Positions 209 to 10,714 of a stretch of 10,714 nucleotides of DNA are shown here, in pieces. The DNA is from a virus. Position 1 is the first letter of the stretch. Every line of letters starts with the position of its first letter. A model generated the notes under the pieces. That model was not told where the DNA came from and searched no databases. It worked only from the letters and a program-made list of their open reading frames with translations. Both the position numbers and the translations under genes were made by a program. The stretch lies in UHGV virus genome UHGV-1748743. The stretch is one strand, 5' to 3'.

Positions 209-624
209 GTTTTGCCCTGAAACTGGCGCGTGAGATGGGGCGACCCGACTGGCGTGCCATGCTTGCCGGGATGTCATCCACGGAGTATGCCGACTGGCAC
301 CGCTTTTACAGTACCCATTATTTTCATGATGTTCTGCTGGATATGCACTTTTCCGGGCTGACGTACACCGTGCTCAGCCTGTTTTTCAGCGATCCGGATA
401 TGCATCCGCTGGATTTCAGTCTGCTGAACCGGCGCGAGGCTGACGAAGAGCCTGAAGATGATGTGCTGATGCAGAAAGCGGCAGGGCTTGCCGGAGGTGT
501 CCGCTTTGGCCCGGACGGGAATGAAGTTATCCCCGCTTCCCCGGATGTGGCGGACATGACGGAGGATGACGTAATGCTGATGACAGTATCAGAAGGGATC
601 GCAGGAGGAGTCCGGTATGGCTGA
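190..624 (+). CDS. T: T-frame segment of the G-T fusion tail assembly chaperone, expressed only by -1 frameshift from G
   Basis: Seen in sequence: -1 frame relative to G, open from the slippery site to TGA 622-624. There is no ATG or Shine-Dalgarno of its own (the track start at 190 is a GTG read as Val). The stop overlaps the H start (ATGGCTGA). The 435-nt length equals the lambda T segment as I recall it. The acidic tail EDDVLMQKAAGLAGGVRFG... is repeated near the C-terminus. Confidence 0.85.
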   Translation: MFDGELSFALKLAREMGRPDWRAMLAGMSSTEYADWHRFYSTHYFHDVLLDMHFSGLTYTVLSLFFSDPDMHPLDFSLLNRREADEEPEDDVLMQKAAGLAGGVRFGPDGNEVIPASPDVADMTEDDVMLMTVSEGIAGGVRYG

Positions 625-3178
625 ACCGGTAGGCGATCTGGTCGTTGATTTGAGTCTGGATGCGGCCAGATTTGACGAGCAGATGGCCAGAGTCAGGCGT
701 CATTTTTCCGGTACGGAAAGTGATGCGAAAAAAACAGCGGCAGTCGTTGAACAGTCGCTGAGCCGACAGGCGCTGGCTGCACAGAAAGCGGGGATTTCCG
801 TCGGGCAGTATAAAGCCGCCATGCGTATGCTGCCTGCACAGTTCACCGACGTGGCCACGCAGCTTGCAGGCGGGCAAAGTCCGTGGCTGATCCTGCTGCA
901 ACAGGGGGGGCAGGTGAAGGACTCCTTCGGCGGGATGATCCCCATGTTCAGGGGGCTTGCCGGTGCGATCACCCTGCCGATGGTGGGGGCCACCTCGCTG
1001 GCGGTGGCGACCGGTGCGCTGGCGTATGCCTGGTATCAGGGCAACTCAACCCTGTCCGATTTCAACAAAACGCTGGTCCTTTCCGGCAATCAGGCGGGTC
1101 TGACGGCAGATCGTATGCTGGTCCTGTCCAGAGCCGGGCAGGCGGCAGGGCTGACGTTTAACCAGACCAGCGAGTCACTCAGCGCACTGGTTAAGGCGGG
1201 GGTAAGCGGTGAGGCTCAGATTGCGTCCATCAGCCAGAGTGTGGCGCGTTTCTCCTCTGCATCCGGCGTGGAGGTGGACAAGGTCGCTGAAGCCTTCGGG
1301 AAGCTGACCACAGACCCGACGTCGGGGCTGACGGCGATGGCACGCCAGTTCCATAACGTGACGGCGGAGCAGATTGCGTATGTTGCTCAGTTGCAGCGTT
1401 CCGGCGATGAAGCCGGGGCATTGCAGGCGGCGAACGAGGCCGCAACGAAAGGGTTTGATGACCAGACCCGCCGCCTGAAAGAGAACATGGGCACGCTGGA
1501 GACCTGGGCAGACAGGACTGCGCGGGCATTCAAATCCATGTGGGATGCGGTGCTGGATATTGGTCGTCCTGATACCGCGCAGGAGATGCTGATTAAGGCA
1601 GAGGCTGCGTTTAAGAAAGCAGACGACATCTGGAATCTGCGCAAGGATGATTATTTTGTTAACGATGAAGCGCGGGCGCGTTACTGGGATGATCGTGAAA
1701 AGGCCCGTCTTGCGCTTGAAGCCGCCCGAAAGAAGGCTGAACAGCAGAGTCAACAGGACAAAAATGCGCAGCAGCAGAGCGATACCGAAGCGTCACGGCT
1801 GAAATATACCGAAGAGGCGCAGAAGGCTTACGAACGGCTGCAGACGCCGCTGGAGAAATATGCCGCCCGTCAGGAAGAACTGAATAAGGCCCTGAAAGAC
1901 GGAAAAATCCTGCAGGCAGATTACAACACGCTGATGGCGGCAGCGAAAAAGGACTATGAAACGACACTGAAAAAGCCGAAGCAGTCCGGCGTGAAGGTGT
2001 CTGCGGGCGATCGTCAGGAAGACAGTGCTCATGCTGCCCTGCTGACGCTTCAGGCTGAACTCCGGACGCTGGAGAAGCATGCCGGAGCAAATGAGAAAAT
2101 CAGCCAGCAGCGCCGGGATTTGTGGAAGGCGGAGAGTCAGTTCGCGGTACTGGAGGAGGCGGCGCAACGTCGCCAGCTGTCTGTACAGGAGAAATCCCTG
2201 CTGGCGCATAAAGATGAGACGCTGGAGTACAAACGCCAGCTGGCTGCACTTGGCGACAAGGTTACGTATCAGGAGCGCCTGAACGCGCTGGCGCAGCAGG
2301 CGGATAAATTCGCACAGCAGCAACGGGCAAAACGGGCCGCCATTGATGCGAAAAGCCGGGGGCTGACTGACCGGCAGGCAGAACGGGAAGCCACGGAACA
2401 GCGCCTGAAGGAACAGTATGGCGATAATCCGCTGGCGCTGAATAACGTCATGTCAGAGCAGAAAAAGACCTGGGCGGCTGAAGACCAGCTTCGCGGGAAC
2501 TGGATGGCAGGCCTGAAGTCCGGCTGGAGTGAGTGGGAAGAGAGCGCCACGGACAGTATGTCGCAGGTAAAAAGTGCAGCCACGCAGACCTTTGATGGTA
2601 TTGCACAGAATATGGCGGCGATGCTGACCGGCAGTGAGCAGAACTGGCGCAGCTTCACCCGTTCCGTGCTGTCCATGATGACAGAAATTCTGCTTAAGCA
2701 GGCAATGGTGGGGATTGTCGGGAGTATCGGCAGCGCCATTGGCGGGGCTGTTGGTGGCGGCGCATCCGCGTCAGGCGGTACAGCCATTCAGGCCGCTGCG
2801 GCGAAATTCCATTTTGCAACCGGAGGATTTACGGGAACCGGCGGCAAATATGAGCCAGCGGGGATTGTTCACCGTGGTGAATTTGTCTTCACGAAGGAGG
2901 CAACCAGCCGGATTGGCGTGGGGAATCTTTACCGGCTGATGCGCGGCTATGCCACCGGCGGTTATGTCGGTACACCGGGCAGCATGGCAGACAGCCGGTC
3001 GCAGGCGTCCGGGACGTTTGAGCAGAATAACCATGTGGTGATTAACAACGACGGCACGAACGGGCAGATAGGTCCGGCTGCTCTGAAGGCGGTGTATGAC
3101 ATGGCCCGCAAGGGTGCCCGTGATGAAATTCAGACACAGATGCGTGATGGTGGCCTGTTCTCCGGAGGTGGACGATGA
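617..3178 (+). CDS. H: Tail tape measure protein
   Basis: Seen in sequence: 853-codon ORF with GGAGGAG (604-610) 6 nt upstream of ATG 617. It has a long Q/K/E/A/R-rich predicted helical middle (about 1650-2500), a Gly-rich hydrophobic segment GSIGSAIGGAVGGGASASGG, and ends ...GGLFSGGGR. Same length as lambda gpH (recalled) and in the expected position after G/T. Confidence 0.97.
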   Translation: MAEPVGDLVVDLSLDAARFDEQMARVRRHFSGTESDAKKTAAVVEQSLSRQALAAQKAGISVGQYKAAMRMLPAQFTDVATQLAGGQSPWLILLQQGGQVKDSFGGMIPMFRGLAGAITLPMVGATSLAVATGALAYAWYQGNSTLSDFNKTLVLSGNQAGLTADRMLVLSRAGQAAGLTFNQTSESLSALVKAGVSGEAQIASISQSVARFSSASGVEVDKVAEAFGKLTTDPTSGLTAMARQFHNVTAEQIAYVAQLQRSGDEAGALQAANEAATKGFDDQTRRLKENMGTLETWADRTARAFKSMWDAVLDIGRPDTAQEMLIKAEAAFKKADDIWNLRKDDYFVNDEARARYWDDREKARLALEAARKKAEQQSQQDKNAQQQSDTEASRLKYTEEAQKAYERLQTPLEKYAARQEELNKALKDGKILQADYNTLMAAAKKDYETTLKKPKQSGVKVSAGDRQEDSAHAALLTLQAELRTLEKHAGANEKISQQRRDLWKAESQFAVLEEAAQRRQLSVQEKSLLAHKDETLEYKRQLAALGDKVTYQERLNALAQQADKFAQQQRAKRAAIDAKSRGLTDRQAEREATEQRLKEQYGDNPLALNNVMSEQKKTWAAEDQLRGNWMAGLKSGWSEWEESATDSMSQVKSAATQTFDGIAQNMAAMLTGSEQNWRSFTRSVLSMMTEILLKQAMVGIVGSIGSAIGGAVGGGASASGGTAIQAAAAKFHFATGGFTGTGGKYEPAGIVHRGEFVFTKEATSRIGVGNLYRLMRGYATGGYVGTPGSMADSRSQASGTFEQNNHVVINNDGTNGQIGPAALKAVYDMARKGARDEIQTQMRDGGLFSGGGR

Positions 3179-3504
3179 AGACCTTCCGCTGGAAAGTGAA
3201 ACCCGGTATGGATGTGGCTTCGGTCCCTTCTGTAAGAAAGGTGCGCTTTGGTGATGGCTATTCTCAGCGAGCGCCTGCCGGGCTGAATGCCAACCTGAAA
3301 ACGTACAGCGTGACGCTTTCTGTCCCCCGTGAGGAGGCCACGGTACTGGAGTCGTTTCTGGAAGAGCACGGGGGCTGGAAATCCTTTCTGTGGACGCCGC
3401 CTTATGAGTGGCAGCAGATAAAGGTGACCTGCGCAAAATGGTCGTCGCGGGTCAGTATGCTGCGTGTTGAGTTCAGCGCAGAGTTTGAACAGGTGGTGAA
3501 CTGA
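3175..3504 (+). CDS. M: Minor tail (tail tip) protein M
   Basis: Seen in sequence: 109-aa ORF whose ATG overlaps the H stop (ATGA at 3175-3178), with GGAGGTGG at 3162-3169. Size and position match lambda gpM (recalled). Confidence 0.93.
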   Translation: MKTFRWKVKPGMDVASVPSVRKVRFGDGYSQRAPAGLNANLKTYSVTLSVPREEATVLESFLEEHGGWKSFLWTPPYEWQQIKVTCAKWSSRVSMLRVEFSAEFEQVVN

Positions 3505-4202
3505 TGCAGGATATCCGGCAGGAAACACTGAATGAATGCACCCGTGCGGAGCAGTCGGCCAGCGTGGTGCTCTGGGAAATCGACCTGACAGAGGTCGGTG
3601 GAGAACGTTATTTTTTCTGTAATGAGCAGAACGAAAAAGGTGAGCCGGTCACCTGGCAGGGGCGACAGTATCAGCCGTATCCCATTCAGGGGAGCGGTTT
3701 TGAACTGAATGGCAAAGGCACCAGTACGCGCCCCACGCTGACGGTTTCTAACCTGTACGGTATGGTCACCGGGATGGCGGAAGATCTGCAGAGTCTGGTC
3801 GGCGGAACGGTGGTCCGGCGTAAGGTTTACGCCCGTTTTCTGGATGCGGTGAACTTCGTCAACGGAAACAGTTATGCCGATCCGGAGCAGGAGGTGATCA
3901 GCCGCTGGCGCATTGAGCAGTGCAGCGAACTGAGCGCGGTGAGTGCCTCCTTTGTACTGTCCACGCCGACGGAAACGGATGGCGCTGTTTTTCCGGGACG
4001 TATCATGCTGGCCAACACCTGCACCTGGACCTATCGCGGTGACGAGTGCGGTTATAGCGGTCCGGCTGTCGCGGATGAATATGACCAGCCAACGTCCGAT
4101 ATCACGAAGGATAAATGCAGCAAATGCCTGAGCGGTTGTAAGTTCCGCAATAACGTCGGCAACTTTGGCGGCTTCCTTTCCATTAACAAACTTTCGCAGT
4201 AA
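3504..4202 (+). CDS. L: Minor tail (tail tip) protein L, with C-terminal cysteine cluster
   Basis: Seen in sequence: 232-aa ORF whose start overlaps the M stop (TGATG at 3502-3506). Five Cys lie within about 45 residues near the C-terminus (NTCTW, DEC, DKC, SKC, SGC). Established knowledge: lambda gpL is 232 aa and carries an Fe-S cluster. Confidence 0.93.
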   Translation: MQDIRQETLNECTRAEQSASVVLWEIDLTEVGGERYFFCNEQNEKGEPVTWQGRQYQPYPIQGSGFELNGKGTSTRPTLTVSNLYGMVTGMAEDLQSLVGGTVVRRKVYARFLDAVNFVNGNSYADPEQEVISRWRIEQCSELSAVSASFVLSTPTETDGAVFPGRIMLANTCTWTYRGDECGYSGPAVADEYDQPTSDITKDKCSKCLSGCKFRNNVGNFGGFLSINKLSQ

Positions 4203-4206
4203 TCCC

Positions 4207-4950
4207 ATGACACAGACAGAATCAGCGATTCTGGCGCACGCCCGGCGATGTGCGCCAGCGGAGTCGTGCGGCTTCGTGGTAAGCACGCCGGAGGGGGAAA
4301 GATATTTCCCCTGCGTGAATATCTCCGGTGAGCCGGAGGCGTATTTCCGGATGTCGCCGGAGGACTGGCTGCGGGCAGAGATGCAGGGTGAGATTGTGGC
4401 GCTGGTCCACAGCCACCCCGGTGGTCTGCCCTGGCTGAGTGAGGCTGACAGGCGGCTGCAGGTGCAGAGCGATTTGCCGTGGTGGCTGGTCTGCCGGGGT
4501 GAGATTCATAAATTCCGCTGTGTGCCGCATCTTACCGGGCGGTGCTTTGAGCACGGGGTGACGGACTGTTACACGCTGTTCCGGGATGCTTATCATCTGG
4601 CGGGGATTGAGATGCCGGATTTTCATCGCGGGGATGACTGGTGGCGTCACGGTCAGAATCTCTATCTGGATAATCTGGAGGCCACAGGGCTGTATCAGGT
4701 GCCGTTGTCATCAGCACAACCGGGCGATGTGCTGCTGTGCTGTTTTGGTTCATCGGTGCCGAATCATGCCGCCATTTACTGTGGTGATGGCGAGCTGCTG
4801 CACCATATTCCTGAACAACTGAGCAAACGAGAGAGGTATACCGACAAATGGCAGCGACGCACACACTCCCTCTGGCGTCACCGGGCATGGCGCGCATCTG
4901 CCTTTACGGGGATTTACAACGATTTGGCCGCCGCATCGACCTTCGTGTGA
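4207..4950 (+). CDS. K: Tail tip assembly protein K (JAB/MPN-like plus NlpC/P60-like domains)
   Basis: Seen in sequence: the first ATG of the open frame is at 4207, 5 nt after the L stop (the track start at 4165 is a TTG), giving 247 aa. It contains a JAMM-like H-S-H-P-x6-S-x2-D motif (HSHPGGLPWLSEAD) with a candidate catalytic Glu upstream (AESCGFVV), and C-terminal Cys/His candidates of an NlpC/P60 fold (TDCYTLF, PNHAAIY). Lambda K is annotated from the internal ATG at 4351 (199 aa, recalled). Confidence 0.88.
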   Translation: MTQTESAILAHARRCAPAESCGFVVSTPEGERYFPCVNISGEPEAYFRMSPEDWLRAEMQGEIVALVHSHPGGLPWLSEADRRLQVQSDLPWWLVCRGEIHKFRCVPHLTGRCFEHGVTDCYTLFRDAYHLAGIEMPDFHRGDDWWRHGQNLYLDNLEATGLYQVPLSSAQPGDVLLCCFGSSVPNHAAIYCGDGELLHHIPEQLSKRERYTDKWQRRTHSLWRHRAWRASAFTGIYNDLAAASTFV

Positions 4951-5489
4951 AAACGGGGGCTGAAGCCATCCGGGCGCTGGCCACACAGCTCCCGGCGTTT
5001 CGTCAGAAACTGAGCGACGGCTGGTATCAGGTACGGATTGCCGGGCGTGATACAGGTGAAACGGAATTATCAGCCCGTCTTAATGAACCGCTGGCAAATG
5101 GTGCTGTGATCCATATCGTGCCGCGTCTGGCAGGAGCCAAAAGTGGCGGTGTGTTTCAGGCTGTGCTGGGGGCGGCTGTTATGGCGGTTGCTATATGGAT
5201 GCCGGGGGTAGGAATTATGGCGAGTAATCTGCTGTTTTCTCTCGGTGCCAGTATGACGCTTGGCGGTGTTGCACAGATGCTGGCCCCTAAACCCAGACCC
5301 CCCCGCACACAGACAACGGATAACGGCAAACAGAACACCTATTTTTCTTCACTGGATAATATGGTTGCCCAGGGCAATGTTCTGCCCGTTCTGTACGGTG
5401 AAATGCGCGTGGGATCACGTGTGGTATCTCAGGAGATCAGCACAGCAGATGAAGGTGATGGTGGTCAGGTTGTGGTGATTGGTCGCTGA
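4848..5489 (+). CDS. I: Tail tip assembly protein I
   Basis: Seen in sequence: 213-aa ORF starting inside the 3' end of K in a different frame (103-nt overlap). The N-terminal region ends ...IVPRLAGAKSGG and is followed by a hydrophobic Gly/Ala-rich segment; the C-terminus is ...EGDGGQVVVIGR. Position between K and J matches lambda I (recalled as 223 aa). Confidence 0.88.
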   Translation: MAATHTLPLASPGMARICLYGDLQRFGRRIDLRVKTGAEAIRALATQLPAFRQKLSDGWYQVRIAGRDTGETELSARLNEPLANGAVIHIVPRLAGAKSGGVFQAVLGAAVMAVAIWMPGVGIMASNLLFSLGASMTLGGVAQMLAPKPRPPRTQTTDNGKQNTYFSSLDNMVAQGNVLPVLYGEMRVGSRVVSQEISTADEGDGGQVVVIGR

Positions 5490-5549: not shown

Positions 5550-8500
5550 ATGGGTAAAGGCAGCAGTAAGGGGCATACCCCGCGCGAAGCGAAGGACAAC
5601 CTGAAGTCCACGCAGCTGCTGAGTGTGATCGATGCCATCAGCGAAGGGCCGGTTGAAGGTCCGGTGGATGGATTAAAAAGCGTGCTGCTGAACAGTACGC
5701 CGGTGCTGGACAGTGAGGGGAATACCAATATATCCGGCGTCACGGTGGTGTTCCGGGCCGGTGAGCAGGAGCAGTCACCGCCGGAGGGATTTGAATCCTC
5801 CGGCTCCGAGACGGTGCTGGGTACGGAAGTGAAATATGACACGCCGATCACCCGGACCATCACGTCGGCAAACATCGACCGTCTGCGCTTTACCTTCGGT
5901 GTACAGGCACTGGTGGAAACCACCTCAAAGGGAGACAGGAATCCGTCGGAAGTTCGCCTGCTGGTTCAGATACAGCGTAACGGTGGCTGGGTGACGGAAA
6001 AAGACATCACCATTAAGGGCAAAACCACCTCGCAGTATCTGGCCTCGGTGGTGGTGGATAACCTGCCGCCGCGCCCGTTTAATATCCGGATGCGCAGGAT
6101 GACGCCGGACAGCACCACAGACCAGCTGCTGAACAAAACGCTCTGGTCGTCATACACCGAAATCATCGATGTGAAACAGTGCTACCCGAACACGGCACTG
6201 GTTGGCGTGCAGGTGGACTCGGAGCAGTTCGGCAGCCAGCAGGTGAGCCGTAATTATCATCTTCGCGGGCGCATTCTGCAGGTGCCGTCGAACTATAACC
6301 CGCAGACGCGGCAATACAGCGGTATCTGGGACGGAACGTTAAAACCGGCATACAGCAACAACATGGCCTGGTGTCTGTGGGATATGCTGACCCATCCGCG
6401 CTACGGCATGGGGAAACGTCTTGGTGCGGCGGATGTGGACAAATGGGCGCTGTATGTCATCGGCCAGTACTGCGACCAGTCGGTGCCGGACGGCTTTGGC
6501 GGCACGGAGCCGCGCATTACCTGTAATGCGTACCTGACCACACAGCGCAAGGCGTGGGATGTGCTCAGTGATTTCTGCTCGGCGATGCGCTGTATGCCGG
6601 TATGGAACGGGCAGACGCTGACGTTCGTGCAGGACCGACCATCAGATAAGGTGTGGACCTATAACCGCAGTAATGTGGTGATGCCGGATGATGGCGCGCC
6701 GTTCCGCTACAGCTTCAGCGCCCTGAAGGACCGCCATAATGCCGTTGAGGTGAACTGGATTGACCCGGATAACGGCTGGGAGACGGCGACAGAGCTCGTG
6801 GAGGATACGCAGGCCATTGCCCGTTACGGCCGTAACGTCACGAAGATGGATGCCTTTGGCTGTACCAGCCGGGGGCAGGCACACCGCGCCGGGCTGTGGC
6901 TGATTAAAACGGAGCTGCTGGAAACGCAGACCGTGGACTTCAGCGTGGGTGCTGAAGGGCTTCGCCATGTACCGGGGGATGTCATTGAAATCTGCGATGA
7001 TGACTATGCCGGTATCAGCACCGGTGGTCGTGTGCTGGCGGTGAACAGCCAGACCCGGACGCTGACGCTCGACCGTGAAATCACGCTGCCATCCTCCGGT
7101 ACCACGCTGATAAGCCTGGTTGACGGAAGTGGCAATCCGGTCAGCGTGGAGGTTCAGTCCGTCACCGACGGCGTGAAGGTGAAAGTGAGCCGTGTTCCTG
7201 ACGGTGTTGCTGAATACAGCGTATGGGGGCTGAAGCTGCCGACGCTGCGCCAGCGCCTGTTCCGCTGCGTGAGTATCCGTGAGAACGATGACGGCACGTA
7301 TGCCATCACCGCCGTGCAGCATGTACCGGAAAAAGAGGCCATCGTGGATAACGGGGCGCACTTTGACGGCGACCAGAGCGGCACGGTGAATGGTGTCACG
7401 CCGCCCGCGGTGCAGCACCTGACCGCAGAAGTCACCGCAGACAGCGGGGAATATCAGGTGCTGGCGCGATGGGACACACCGAAGGTGGTGAAGGGGGTGA
7501 GCTTTATGCTTCGCCTGACCGTGGCAGCGGATGACGGCAGTGAGCGGCTGGTCAGCACAGCCCGGACGGCGGAAACCACATACCGCTTCACACAACTGGC
7601 GCTGGGGAACTACAGGCTGACAGTCCGGGCAGTAAATGCGTGGGGGCAGCAGGGGGATCCGGCGTCGGTATCGTTCCGGATTGCCGCACCGGCAGCGCCA
7701 TCGCGGATTGAGCTGACGCCGGGCTATTTTCAGATAACCGCAACGCCGCATCTTGCCGTTTATGATCCGACGGTACAGTTTGAGTTCTGGTTCTCGGAAA
7801 AGCGGATTGCGGATATCAGGCAGGTTGAAACCAGCGCGCGTTATCTTGGTACGGCGCTGTACTGGATAGCCGCCAGTATCAATATCAAACCGGGCCATGA
7901 TTATTATTTTTACATTCGCAGTGTGAACACCGTTGGCAAATCGGCATTTGTGGAGGCTGTTGGCCAGCCGAGTGATGATGCATCCGGCTATCTGGATTTT
8001 TTCAAAGGAGAGATAGGGAAAACCCATCTGGCTCAGGAGCTGTGGACGCAGATTGATAACGGTCAGCTTGCGCCGGACCTGGCTGAAATCAGGACGTCCA
8101 TTACGGATGTCAGCAATGAAATCACGCAGACCGTCAATAAGAAACTGGAAGACCAGAGTGCAGCGATCCAGCAGATACAGAAGGTTCAGGTTGATACAAA
8201 TAATAACCTGAACAGCATGTGGGCCGTGAAACTGCAGCAGATGCAGGACGGACGCCTTTATATTGCGGGTATCGGTGCCGGTATTGAGAATACGCCAGCA
8301 GGAATGCAGAGTCAGGTGCTGCTGGCGGCGGACAGGATTGCGATGATTAATCCTGCGAATGGCAATACAAAGCCGATGTTTGTTGGGCAGGGCGATCAGA
8401 TATTCATGAACGAAGTGTTCCTGAAATATCTGACGGCTCCCACCATTACCAGCGGTGGCAATCCCCCAACGTTTTCACTGACACCTGATGGTCGACTTTC

Positions 8501-9032
8501 TGCGAGAAATGCGGATATCAGCGGTAACGTGAATGCGAACTCCGGGACGCTCAATAATGTCACGATTAACCAGAACTGTCGGATTCTGGGAAAACTGTCA
8601 GCTAACCAGATTGAAGGTGATATTGTCAAAACGGTGGGAAAAGCCTTTCCGAGAAATGGCAGTTATGCCAGCGGTACAATAACGGTCACTGTGTACGATG
8701 ACCAGGCTTTTGACCGTCAGATAGTCGTCCCCCCCGTTCTGTTTCGCGGTGGTAAGCATGAAAACTTCAACAGCAACAACCAACAGTCATACTGGTATTC
8801 AACCTGTAAGCTGCAGGTGCTGAAGAACGGACAGGAAATCTTTCAGCAACCCGCGACGGATGTCAGCAGGGTATTTTCATCAGTCATTGATATGCCTGCC
8901 GGACACGGCCATGTCACCCTGACTTTCAATGTTTCTTCATATGGTGCAAATAACTGGACGCCAACGACCAGTATCAGCGACCTTCTTGTTGTCGTGATGA
9001 AGAAATCAACAGCCGGCATCAGTATCAGTTGA
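5550..9032 (+). CDS. J: Central tail fibre / host specificity protein J
   Basis: Seen in sequence: 1160-aa ORF with GGAG 9 nt upstream. The N-terminus is [21 protein letters not shown]..., the central region is FN3-like (about 7380-7750), and the C-terminal region carries the putative receptor-binding domain. Follows I as in lambda (gpJ recalled as 1132 aa). Confidence 0.97.
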
Positions 9033-9051
9033 ATTTTAAAACCCAAATTCG

Positions 9052-9079
9052 GGCACCAGAAATGGTGCCTTTTTTATTT
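9052..9079 (+). terminator. Rho-independent terminator downstream of J
   Basis: Seen in sequence: a perfect 7-bp stem GGCACCA (9052-9058) / TGGTGCC (9063-9069) with a GAAA loop, followed by TTTTTTATTT (9070-9079), 20 nt after the J stop. Confidence 0.6.
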
Positions 9080-9090
9080 GTGGAGTGAAT

Positions 9091-10714
9091 ATGGCAGTAC
9101 AGATTTCAGGTGTGCTGAAAGACGGTGCAGGAAAACCGATACAGAACTGCACCATTCAGCTCAAAGCAAAACGTAACAGCACCACAGTTGTGGTGAACAC
9201 GGTGGCCTCAGAAAATCCGGATGAAGCCGGACGTTACAGCATGGATGTTGAGCATGGTCAGTACAGCGTCACCCTGCTGGTTGAAGGTTTTCCGCCTTCA
9301 CATGCCGGGACCATTACCGTCTATGAAGGTTCCAGACCAGGTACGCTGAATGATTTTCTCGGTGCCATGACGGAGGATGATGTACGACCGGAGGCACTGC
9401 GCCGCTTTGAGCAGATGGTAGAAGAGGTGTCACGTAACGCCTCCGCGGTTGCACAGAATACGGCAGCCGCGAAAAAATCAGCCAGCGATGCCAGTGCATC
9501 AGCCAGCGAGGCGGCAACTCATGCAACCGATGCTGCAGCCTCATCACGTGCCGCCAGCACGTCAGCCGGACAGGCCGCGTCGTCGGCTCAGTCAGCGTCT
9601 TCCAGCGCAGGAACGGCATCGACAAAGGCCCGTGAAGCAGCAAAAAGTGCTGCTGCTGCAGAGTCATCAAAAAGCGCGGCAGCTACCAGTGCCGCTGCGG
9701 CGAAAACGTCAGAAACGAATGCCGCAGCATCACAAAAATCGGCAGCCACTTCTGCATCCACAGCGACCACGAAGGCGTCAGAAGCTGCCACCTCGGCACG
9801 GGGTGCGGCGGCCTCAAAAGAGGCAGCGAAATCTTCAGAAACGAATGCATCATCAAGTGCCAGTAGTGCAGCTTCCTCGGCAACGGCGGCAGGAAATTCC
9901 GCGAAGGCGGCAAAGACGTCTGAGACAAACGCCAGGTCTTCTGAAACGGCAGCGGGACAGAGCGCCTCAGCTGCGGCAGGTTCAAAAACAGCGGCTGCAT
10001 TATCTGCCAGTGCCGCGTCAACAAGTGCCGGGCAGGCCTCAGCCAGTGCCACCGCCGCCGGAAAATCGGCAGAAAGCGCCGCATCATCCGCTTCAACAGC
10101 CACAACGAAGGCTGGCAAAGCCACTGAGCAAGCCACTGCAGCAGCGAGGTCTGCTTCTGCAGCAAAAACCTCTGAAACAAATGCAAAGACTTCAGCAGAC
10201 AATGCTGCTTCCTCTAAGGCGGCAGCCGCATCGTCAGCCAGTTCAGCGGCGTCATCGGCATCATCTGCGTCTGCTTCAAAAGATGAGGCGACCAGACAGG
10301 CGTCAGCAGCAAAGGGCAGCGCCACGACGGCATCCACGAAGGCGACAGAGGCAGCTGGCAGTGCGACGGCGGCAGCTCAGAGCAAAAGTACGGCGGAATC
10401 CGCGGCAACGCGCGCCGAGACAGCGGCAAAACGGGCAGAGGATATTGCATCCGCCGTGGCGCTTGAGGATGCGAGCACGACGAAAAAGGGGATAGTACAG
10501 CTCAGCAGTGCGACCAACAGCACTTCCGAGTCACTGGCGGCAACGCCAAAAGCGGTTAAGGCGGTAATGGGTGAAACGAACAAGAAAGCGCCCTTAAATA
10601 GTCCTGCACTGACCGGAACGCCAACAACACCAACTGCGCGACAGGGAACGAATAATACCCAAATCGCAAGCACGGCTTATGTTATGGCTGCGATCGCTGC
10701 CCTCGTGGACTCGT
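9091..10714 (+). CDS. stf: Side tail fibre protein, N-terminal 541 codons (3' end lies beyond the window)
   Basis: Seen in sequence: ATG 9091 with GGAG at 9082-9085; the frame is open to the window end (I translated it by hand; it is missing from the track only because it has no stop in the window). The N-terminus MAVQISGVLKDGAGKPIQNCTIQLKAKRNSTTVVVNT... resembles lambda Stf (recalled). A long Ala/Ser/Thr-rich heptad shaft follows, then the motif KKGIVQLSSATNSTSESLAATPKAVKAVM at 10483-10569. Confidence 0.9.
   Translation, partial: MAVQISGVLKDGAGKPIQNCTIQLKAKRNSTTVVVNTVASENPDEAGRYSMDVEHGQYSVTLLVEGFPPSHAGTITVYEGSRPGTLNDFLGAMTEDDVRPEALRRFEQMVEEVSRNASAVAQNTAAAKKSASDASASASEAATHATDAAASSRAASTSAGQAASSAQSASSSAGTASTKAREAAKSAAAAESSKSAAATSAAAAKTSETNAAASQKSAATSASTATTKASEAATSARGAAASKEAAKSSETNASSSASSAASSATAAGNSAKAAKTSETNARSSETAAGQSASAAAGSKTAAALSASAASTSAGQASASATAAGKSAESAASSASTATTKAGKATEQATAAARSASAAKTSETNAKTSADNAASSKAAAASSASSAASSASSASASKDEATRQASAAKGSATTASTKATEAAGSATAAAQSKSTAESAATRAETAAKRAEDIASAVALEDASTTKKGIVQLSSATNSTSESLAATPKAVKAVMGETNKKAPLNSPALTGTPTTPTARQGTNNTQIASTAYVMAAIAALVDS
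9472..10458 (+). repeat. In-frame 21-nt (heptad) periodic repeat region encoding the Ala/Ser-rich fibre shaft within stf
   Basis: Seen in sequence: residues about 128-456 align in about 47 consecutive 7-residue rows with consensus x-[ST]-S-A-x-x-A (Ala nearly invariant at position 7, Ser at position 3). The motif K-[TS]-S-E-T-N-A starts at 9703, 9829, 9913 and 10165, with spacings of 126, 84 and 252 nt, all multiples of 21. Confidence 0.8.

Follow-up and report, generated by a model that had tools for sequence, protein, structure and literature searches.

That lambdoid phages exchange the C-terminal end of their central tail fibre protein, J, is textbook mosaicism. This exchangeable end sets the host range, as in phage 434 and lambda h434, and the domain map of lambda gpJ, together with the role of its shaft in triggering, has been described (PMC11101478). 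Lambda gpJ (NC_001416; PDB 8IYK, 8XCJ and 8XCK) uses LamB as its receptor, and the J protein of phage 434 and of hybrids such as lambda h434 binds OmpC. For phage 21 the only native receptor is LamB (10.1101/2023.04.13.536812; PMC11336670). Hosts escaped the laboratory phage through LamB loss (10.1101/2023.04.13.536812), the receptor use of its ancestor is given as "L" only, and I1025T, one substitution outside the contact loops, adds OmpC (PMC11336670).

The window that we analyzed, a stretch of 10,714 nucleotides from the virus genome UHGV-1748743, a prophage, carries the already known phage 21 allele of J (Table 1). The protein matches six Pfam models above their cut-offs, in the expected order, which is that of lambda gpJ: FNIII-A_GpJ (amino acids 86–207), Phage-tail_3 (330–498), Ig_J (610–714), Ig_J_second (716–818), Phage_Tail_Tip (872–1000) and Ig_GpJ_C (1038–1160). 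The lambda and A8 gpJ structures match amino acids ~849–1160 with E-values of 1e-94 to 1e-144. The gene lies at the end of a tail cluster in the order H, M, L, K, I, J, followed by stf. The open reading frames at 617–3178, 3175–3504, 3504–4202, 4165–4950, 4848–5489 and 5550–9032 are colinear with the clusters of phage 21, PhiR47_2 and lambda, and E. coli annotations under matching sequence agree with this order. Over its full length, J is 96.4% identical at the nucleotide level to phage 21 (~3.6% divergence) and 99.2% identical to PhiR47_2. Phage 21 J (OL657228, CPT_21_21) has the same length of 1160 amino acids and the same long shaft, 28 amino acids longer than that of lambda. The two proteins differ at 21 amino acids, of which five fall within the distal third (N816D, G853D, V912I, D917A and K986R) and none past amino acid 986; residues 987–1160 are identical, including I1025 and V1026 at the junction between the fibre and the receptor-binding domain (RBD). 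The allele is common: near-identical copies of J occur in about one fifth to one third of complete E. coli genomes, and a protein database search with the distal 345 amino acids returned at least 8000 matches, of which the 120 listed consisted almost entirely of identical fragments. The matches usable for alignment were 98–100% identical and thus hold little diversity. Because the phage 21 allele has already been sequenced and studied experimentally, its presence here has little discovery value; it has some practical value. Taken as a whole, the locus is best explained, with good confidence, as a phage 21 J allele with two old, swappable distal modules and an RBD that binds LamB.

Table 1. Coordinates of J, its modules and its downstream neighbors in the window.
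Feature	Position (nt)	Strand	Evidence or remark
Gene J, central tail fibre / tip attachment protein, phage 21-type allele	5550–9032	+	Intact ORF, 1160 aa
Conserved trunk (hub domains and two Ig/FNIII domains), common to lambda, 434, 21 and others	5550–7957	+	97–98% aa identity to lambda
GC step (0.60 to ~0.50) at the first/second Ig-like domain boundary	7692–7725	+	Change point; Pfam boundary at aa 714/716
Module 1: 21-type alpha-helical shaft and upper beta-prism fibre (aa ~803–940)	7958–8371	+	Breakpoints, identity
Net 28-aa insertion relative to lambda (aa 836–856 and 860–866), in the alpha-helical shaft	8055–8147	+	Alignment gaps
Conserved lower central straight fibre, recombination linker between the modules	8372–8627	+	81–93% aa identity across all types
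Codon I1025, wild type here; I1025T gives OmpC use in phage 21	8622–8624	+	Residues 1020–1030 [11 protein letters not shown]; PMC11336670
Module 2: 21-type RBD (aa 1027–1160, Ig-like) and stop codon	8628–9032 (module from ~8580)	+	Pfam Ig_GpJ_C, aa 1038–1160
Codon E1071 (GAA); receptor-tested laboratory phage 21 has K (G18903A)	8760–8762	+	10.1101/2023.04.13.536812
Terminator-like hairpin and T run after J	9051–9080	+	Consensus scan; phage 21 has an annotated terminator at the equivalent position
stf 5' part, right-hand conserved flank of the RBD cassette	9091–10714, open to window end	+	ATG at 9091, 541 stop-free codons

The first-pass annotation of this DNA had proposed that J is longer than its lambda counterpart and departs from it at a mosaic junction, with protein divergence starting near nt 7990. 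Both proposals hold. Lambda J has 1132 amino acids and a like domain order, and the two proteins are far from uniformly similar. In 40-amino-acid windows, identity stays at 0.93–1.00 as far as amino acid ~815–820 and falls to 0.12–0.55 beyond ~820, apart from an island of 0.85–0.88 at amino acids 940–1000; over the last 150 amino acids it is ~0.40–0.55. Divergence starts at DFFKGE / [11 protein letters not shown], that is at amino acid 816 (nt 7995), and the maximum chi-square breakpoint on the DNA falls at nt ~7958. The junction is therefore real, near nt 7960–8000, and the allele distal to it differs from that of lambda. The additional length is local as well: the 28 extra residues form a single insertion, with no scattered indels elsewhere.

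Upon comparison with other lambdoid phages, the distal third resolves into two modules joined by a linker. Module 1 begins at a breakpoint that lies at 7958–7961 against lambda, 434 and 1W alike, and identity to 1W returns at 8372. Its amino acid identity to lambda is 25–43%, and it is 98–100% identical in ev099, 640R1 and Chlobot, whose RBDs differ. From its sequence, we infer that the 28-amino-acid insertion is helical and lengthens the shaft: amino acids 840–867 display a hydrophobic periodicity of 3.5–3.67 residues that was matched by 3 of 2000 shuffles. No Pfam model covers amino acids 819–871. A low-confidence model of amino acids 766–1160 from single-sequence AlphaFold2 places helices at 826–836 and 843–876 (mean pLDDT 40, pTM 0.31, too poor for a fold search or for conclusions on the insertion).

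Module 2, the RBD, has a different set of relatives. It is 100% identical in amino acids to GenBank phage 21 and 99% identical to that of phage 1W, whose shaft is of the lambda type; identity is 90% to Stx1_499, 81% to Chlobot and A8, 46% to lambda and 43% to 434. Phage 434 J thus has the same trunk as window J but a lambda-type shaft and a distant RBD, and the window RBD does not belong to the OmpC-binding 434 type. Nor does it belong to the OmpC-binding A8/Chlobot type, from which 29 substitutions separate it over amino acids 1000–1160, clustered in several surface stretches. Phage phi330 (PMC12502783) has a different RBD.

Crossovers are scattered over 8372–8645, at 8372 in 1W, 8459 in Chlobot, 8580 in ev099 and 8645 in 640R1, and partial E. 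coli matches span 1–656 or 375–1038 of the query. The pairs of shaft and RBD are lambda and 21 in 1W, 21 and 434 in ev099, lambda and 434 in phage 434, and 21 and 21 in the window, so that all four combinations occur in nature. In an IMG/VR sample biased to the 21-type shaft (seeded with a sequence that included amino acids 803–815 and limited to the best 80 loci), that shaft occurs in 73 of 75 loci, combined with RBDs of the 640R1 type (38), the 434 type (24), the 21 type (10) and the A8 type (1). The shaft/upper fibre and the RBD assort independently. The annotation had read the distal third as an exchanged module; a different allele is indeed present, but it consists of these two modules rather than one.

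Synonymous divergence bears on the age of the modules. Relative to lambda, dS rises from 0.14 for the trunk, where dN/dS is 0.09, through intermediate values of 0.4–0.9 for the linker to ~2.7 for the shaft module; the RBD has a dS of 2.3. The dN/dS ratio is 0.09–0.21 overall and only 0.16–0.21 in the distal segments. With both modules saturated at synonymous sites and dN/dS low, we read them as old alleles swapped by recombination. It is scarcely credible that rapid diversifying selection produced the divergence in place, without module exchange. Receptor-binding regions do evolve fast under host pressure, and phage 21 gained up to 11 J mutations within 21–24 days in the laboratory (PMC11336670), but the contrast in dS between the trunk and the distal segments, the low dN/dS, and the recurrence of these segments, at 97–100% identity, in other phages with different partners all argue against it. 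In the recombination model, homologous recombination would carry the modules from one lambdoid phage to another, using the conserved sequence around them in the trunk, in the lower fibre and at the beginning of stf. With its two cassettes and conserved linker, the end of J that determines host range offers a worked example useful for hybrid-fibre engineering.

In E. coli and in lambda, GC contents of about 0.50 are usual. The annotation had taken lower GC in the distal third as evidence of exchange, from hand estimates that were accurate (0.417 at 8161–8220, 0.483 at 8881–9000, 0.683 at 7381–7440 and 0.400 at 7861–7920). GC is 0.589 over 5550–7949 and 0.496 over 7950–9032, and GC3 falls from 0.73 to 0.53–0.56 across J. 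A single-change-point likelihood scan of 5550–9300 confirmed a significant break, from 0.600 to 0.489, but placed it at nt ~7725, upstream of the divergence point near nt 8000 (LLR 22.9, reached by none of 500 shuffles of 30-nt blocks, whose maximum was 10.5). Both GC and GC3 stay low from there to nt ~9300, which would fit a recent acquisition from a lower-GC donor by one phage lineage. We consider such an acquisition very unlikely. The step, at amino acid ~725, precedes the loss of identity to lambda by ~230–270 nt and sits in sequence still 95–97% identical to lambda, whose own J dips there too. All ten lambdoid J genes compared (including those of lambda, 434 and an Stx phage) have a GC content of 0.59–0.60 before amino acid 725 and 0.46–0.56 after it, whatever their distal alleles. 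Moreover, it is the trunk, at 0.58–0.60, that is GC-rich; the distal ~0.50 is ordinary. The GC step is no marker of the exchange: all lambdoid J genes compared have it, and it lies on the upstream side of the junction. A shift in GC close to a junction can thus be a shared feature of a gene and no mark of transfer.

The identity of the RBD with that of phage 21, combined with the published phage 21 experiments, indicates that the RBD of window J most likely binds LamB, the receptor that lambda gpJ uses as well. The annotation had suggested a receptor other than LamB, which is at odds with amino acids 987–1160 being those of GenBank phage 21. By this identity, the partner of the trimeric RBD would be LamB, itself a trimeric maltoporin. 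As in lambda, their contact would be expected to spread the RBDs, twist the fibre, refold the shaft and open the tail tip. The allele would be one mutation, I1025T, away from added OmpC use. The supplement of PMC11336670 contains no J mutations, and neither PMC12315714 nor a receptor-prediction preprint holds receptor data for the 21-type allele.

A single residue separates the tested phage 21 stock from the window RBD, K1071 in the former and E1071 in the latter, and E1071 is also found in GenBank phage 21 and in hundreds of E. coli prophages. This difference leaves room for an unlikely alternative, in which the native receptor of the natural E1071 form of the 21-type RBD is OmpC or another porin, either in place of LamB or beside it. 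The closest solved RBD is that of A8 gpJ (PDB 9wca and 9wcb), with Chlobot J, at 81% identity over amino acids 1027–1160. PDB 9wcb pairs A8 gpJ713 with an OmpC chain and contains no LamB chain; a literature search found no paper on A8 gpJ. A8 J has a lambda-type short shaft and Chlobot J a 21-type shaft, and the RBD of both shares with window J an identical [16 protein letters not shown] loop, which contains E1071, and identical C-terminal strands. That the LamB-only laboratory phage carries K1071 and acquires OmpC by one substitution outside the contact loops points in the same direction. Against this stand the 29 residues that separate the 21 and A8 types, and the observation that, save for residue 1071, the RBD is that of a LamB-requiring phage whose escape hosts had lost LamB. 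Since OmpC use was still within reach of the K1071 laboratory phage, there is no clear sign that residue 1071 acts as the switch. We therefore find it improbable that natural E1071 RBDs of the 21 type use OmpC beside or instead of LamB and that the LamB-only laboratory phenotype stems partly from E1071K. If true, the 21/A8 RBD clade would constitute a natural LamB/OmpC switch in which a few loop residues decide. LamB remains the most likely receptor for window J. Specificity does not follow RBD similarity, as A8, at 81% identity, is paired with OmpC and lambda, at 46%, with LamB; RBD similarity by itself does not reveal which receptor is used.

Downstream of J, the window resembles phage 21, where J, a terminator and stf lie in succession and lom is missing; in lambda, by contrast, lom comes after J. 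The gap between J and stf is 59 nt in phage 21 and PhiR47_2, and nucleotide identity to lambda stf is 78–93% from nt ~9072 onward. Scans of the window for Rfam families and tRNAs gave no hits. On the minus strand, 7950–9032 contains small open reading frames of 61–77 amino acids, without support. The lom gene is absent after J in the window, as it is in all ten loci with a 21-type RBD, compared with 6 of 59 loci with other RBDs (Fisher p 2e-8; the loci are not phylogenetically independent). The RBD cassette thus usually travels with a lom-less J–stf junction.

Gene order in the window, a lambdoid tail cluster running from H, M, L, K, I and J into the beginning of stf, is colinear with that of lambda, phage 21 and PhiR47_2. 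Matches to 80% or more of the window occur in over 3000 complete E. coli genomes. J, the central tail fibre, displays the complete gpJ domain series in Pfam. Judged by its sequence, the whole of J, and not just its distal end, is the phage 21 allele: along its full length it shares 96.4% of nucleotides with phage 21 (OL657228), it is 99.2% identical to PhiR47_2, and none of the 21 amino acid differences from phage 21 lies beyond residue 986. Many E. coli proteins contain the distal 345 amino acids unchanged (100% identity), with proteins from ST131 among the matches listed. Of 5426 complete E. coli genomes, 1642 contain 80% or more of the distal 1038 nt; in this search 990 records match at 95-99% identity.

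Features of J and its downstream junction, with divergence of J segments from lambda
Feature	Position	Strand	Basis or remark	dS	dN/dS
J	nt 5550-9032	+	intact ORF, 1160 aa		
FNIII-A	J aa 86-207		Pfam		
Phage-tail_3	J aa 330-498		Pfam		
Ig_J	J aa 610-714		Pfam		
Ig_J_second	J aa 716-818		Pfam		
Phage_Tail_Tip	J aa 872-1000		Pfam		
Ig_GpJ_C	J aa 1038-1160		Pfam		
Trunk (conserved proximal J)	J aa 1-815			0.14	0.09
Shaft module	J aa 816-930			2.7	0.16
Linker (lower fibre)	J aa 931-1005			0.84	0.13
Receptor-binding domain (RBD)	J aa 1006-1160			2.3	0.21
Terminator-like hairpin	nt 9051-9070		after J		
stf	ATG at nt 9091, open to window end		directly after hairpin		

In the protein alignment, J is 93-100% identical to lambda as far as residue ~820 and identity collapses beyond; divergence starts at residue 816 (nt 7995), and the DNA breakpoint lies at nt ~7958. 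The first-pass annotation had guessed ~7990, and its other figures were equally sound, including the length of lambda J (1132 aa) and four hand estimates of GC, each within 0.02 of the true value. Its proposal that the distal third is an exchanged receptor-binding module holds as to exchange. Synonymous sites against lambda are saturated while selection is purifying, which identifies old alleles united by recombination and rules out recent diversifying selection as the source of the distal divergence.

By contrast, the idea of one single module does not hold, since the distal third comprises two, a shaft/upper fibre (aa 816-930) and an RBD (aa 1027-1160), whose assortment we read from a ten-phage panel. 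The window, phage 21 and PhiR47_2 are 21-type in both. 1W joins a lambda-type shaft (25-42% identity to the window) to a 21-type RBD (99%), ev099 a 21-type shaft (98-100%) to a 434-type RBD (43%), and 434 a lambda-type shaft to its own RBD. All four combinations of two shaft and two RBD types thus exist, which requires recombination between the modules. On further 21-type shafts, 640R1 bears another RBD type (63%) and Chlobot that of A8 (81%). Crossovers differ in place within the conserved lower fibre (8372 in 1W, 8459 in Chlobot, 8580 in ev099 and 8645 in 640R1), and partial E. coli matches, limited to query 1-656 or 375-1038, point to the same two junction zones. Among sequenced phages, at 95% identity or more, the 21-type shaft occurs in 65 records and the 21-type RBD in only 23. 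The 75 IMG/VR loci divide into 640R1-type (38), 434-type (24), 21-type (10) and A8-type (2) RBDs; nearly all have the 21-type shaft, a skew due to the seed chosen (best 80 loci kept), and one of the two A8-type RBDs sits on a lambda-type shaft. Within the linker, 8460-8520 of the window, phage 21 and PhiR47_2 is only 0.70-0.80 identical to all other panel types, suggesting finer mosaicism in an otherwise conserved region. A terminator-like hairpin with a T run at 7982-8007 (+) (ATCCGGCTATCTGGAT TTTTTCAAAG), in the codons for SGYLDFFKG, lies exactly at the proximal junction, probably by coincidence.

Lower GC had also been taken as a sign of exchange. GC does fall, from 0.589 (5550-7949) to 0.496 (7950-9032), and GC3 from 0.73 to 0.53-0.56 along J. 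However, a likelihood change-point scan places the break at nt ~7725 (score matched by 0 of 500 block shuffles), at the Ig_J/Ig_J_second boundary (7692-7725, aa ~725), where identity to lambda still stands at 95-97% and the junction is ~270 nt further downstream. In all ten lambdoid J genes compared, GC is 0.59-0.60 up to aa 725 and 0.46-0.56 beyond. The step (0.60 to 0.50) is a property of the gene family, uninformative on exchange in this phage; it may record a junction of far greater age. RBD GC is somewhat lower in the 21-type (0.46-0.48) than in lambda (0.55), so the allele-specific share of the signal is small. A 461-aa antisense ORF within J (6642-8027, -) terminates where GC drops and is most likely a by-product of high trunk GC3.

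No lom lies between J and stf (9033-9090). Phage 21, PhiR47_2 and 1W likewise lack it there, unlike lambda, 434, ev099, 640R1, Chlobot and Stx1_499, and it is missing from 10 of 10 IMG/VR loci with the 21 RBD versus 6 of 59 with other RBDs. This tight link suggests that the RBD cassette extends from the lower fibre as far as the conserved beginning of stf. Set against lambda stf, the window has an additional ~300 nt at about 10000-10300; the Ala/Ser-rich repetitive part of the gene (9400-10500) contains long ORFs in other frames (9449-10495, +; 9588-10337, -).

A receptor other than LamB, raised as a possibility at first pass, is disfavored: the RBD is identical to that of GenBank phage 21, the phage 21 ancestor is given as LamB-only (Gerbino et al., PMC11336670), and LamB loss was the hosts' first escape route from phage 21 (10.1101/2023.04.13.536812). 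I1025T, just ahead of the RBD, adds OmpC, and more J mutations add OmpF (Gerbino et al., PMC11336670); the window retains I1025 and V1026. Pointing the other way, the best solved match, A8 gpJ 713 (9wca, 9wcb), has a Chlobot-type RBD 81% identical to the window's, and 9wcb contains an OmpC chain and no LamB chain. OmpC binding thus occurs among near relatives of this RBD, whereas the distant lambda RBD binds LamB. Moreover, the laboratory phage 21 stock used in receptor work carries G18903A (10.1101/2023.04.13.536812), by our calculation E1071K in an RBD loop, while E1071 is present in the window (codon 8760-8762), GenBank phage 21 and the OmpC-associated A8/Chlobot type. On balance, LamB is the best call and quite probably correct. 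The original observation is correct and its explanation ordinary (a known allele, a known mosaic gene, a published receptor); the two-module structure, shared GC step, lom linkage and close OmpC-binding relative with its E1071K caveat are modest refinements.

The 28 residues by which J exceeds lambda form a single local insertion (aa 836-856 and 860-866) in the shaft, within aa 819-871, the sole stretch without a Pfam model. Residues 840-867 display a hydrophobic periodicity of 3.5-3.67, equalled by 3 of 2000 shuffles, and are immediately preceded by G838 and P842. An AF2 model, unreliable at pLDDT 40, also has helices spanning aa 826-836 and 843-876. We infer that the insertion lengthens the helical bundle by up to about 4 nm. 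In lambda, shaft residues 841-861 refold to beta-strands on LamB binding (PMC11101478). A 21-type J fragment (protein P0001, on a 1680-nt E. coli contig) carries T1028A, beside the I1025 hot spot, and a 50-aa tandem duplication (ending GMQSQV) in the shaft/upper fibre, which reflects either natural variation in fibre length or an assembly artefact.
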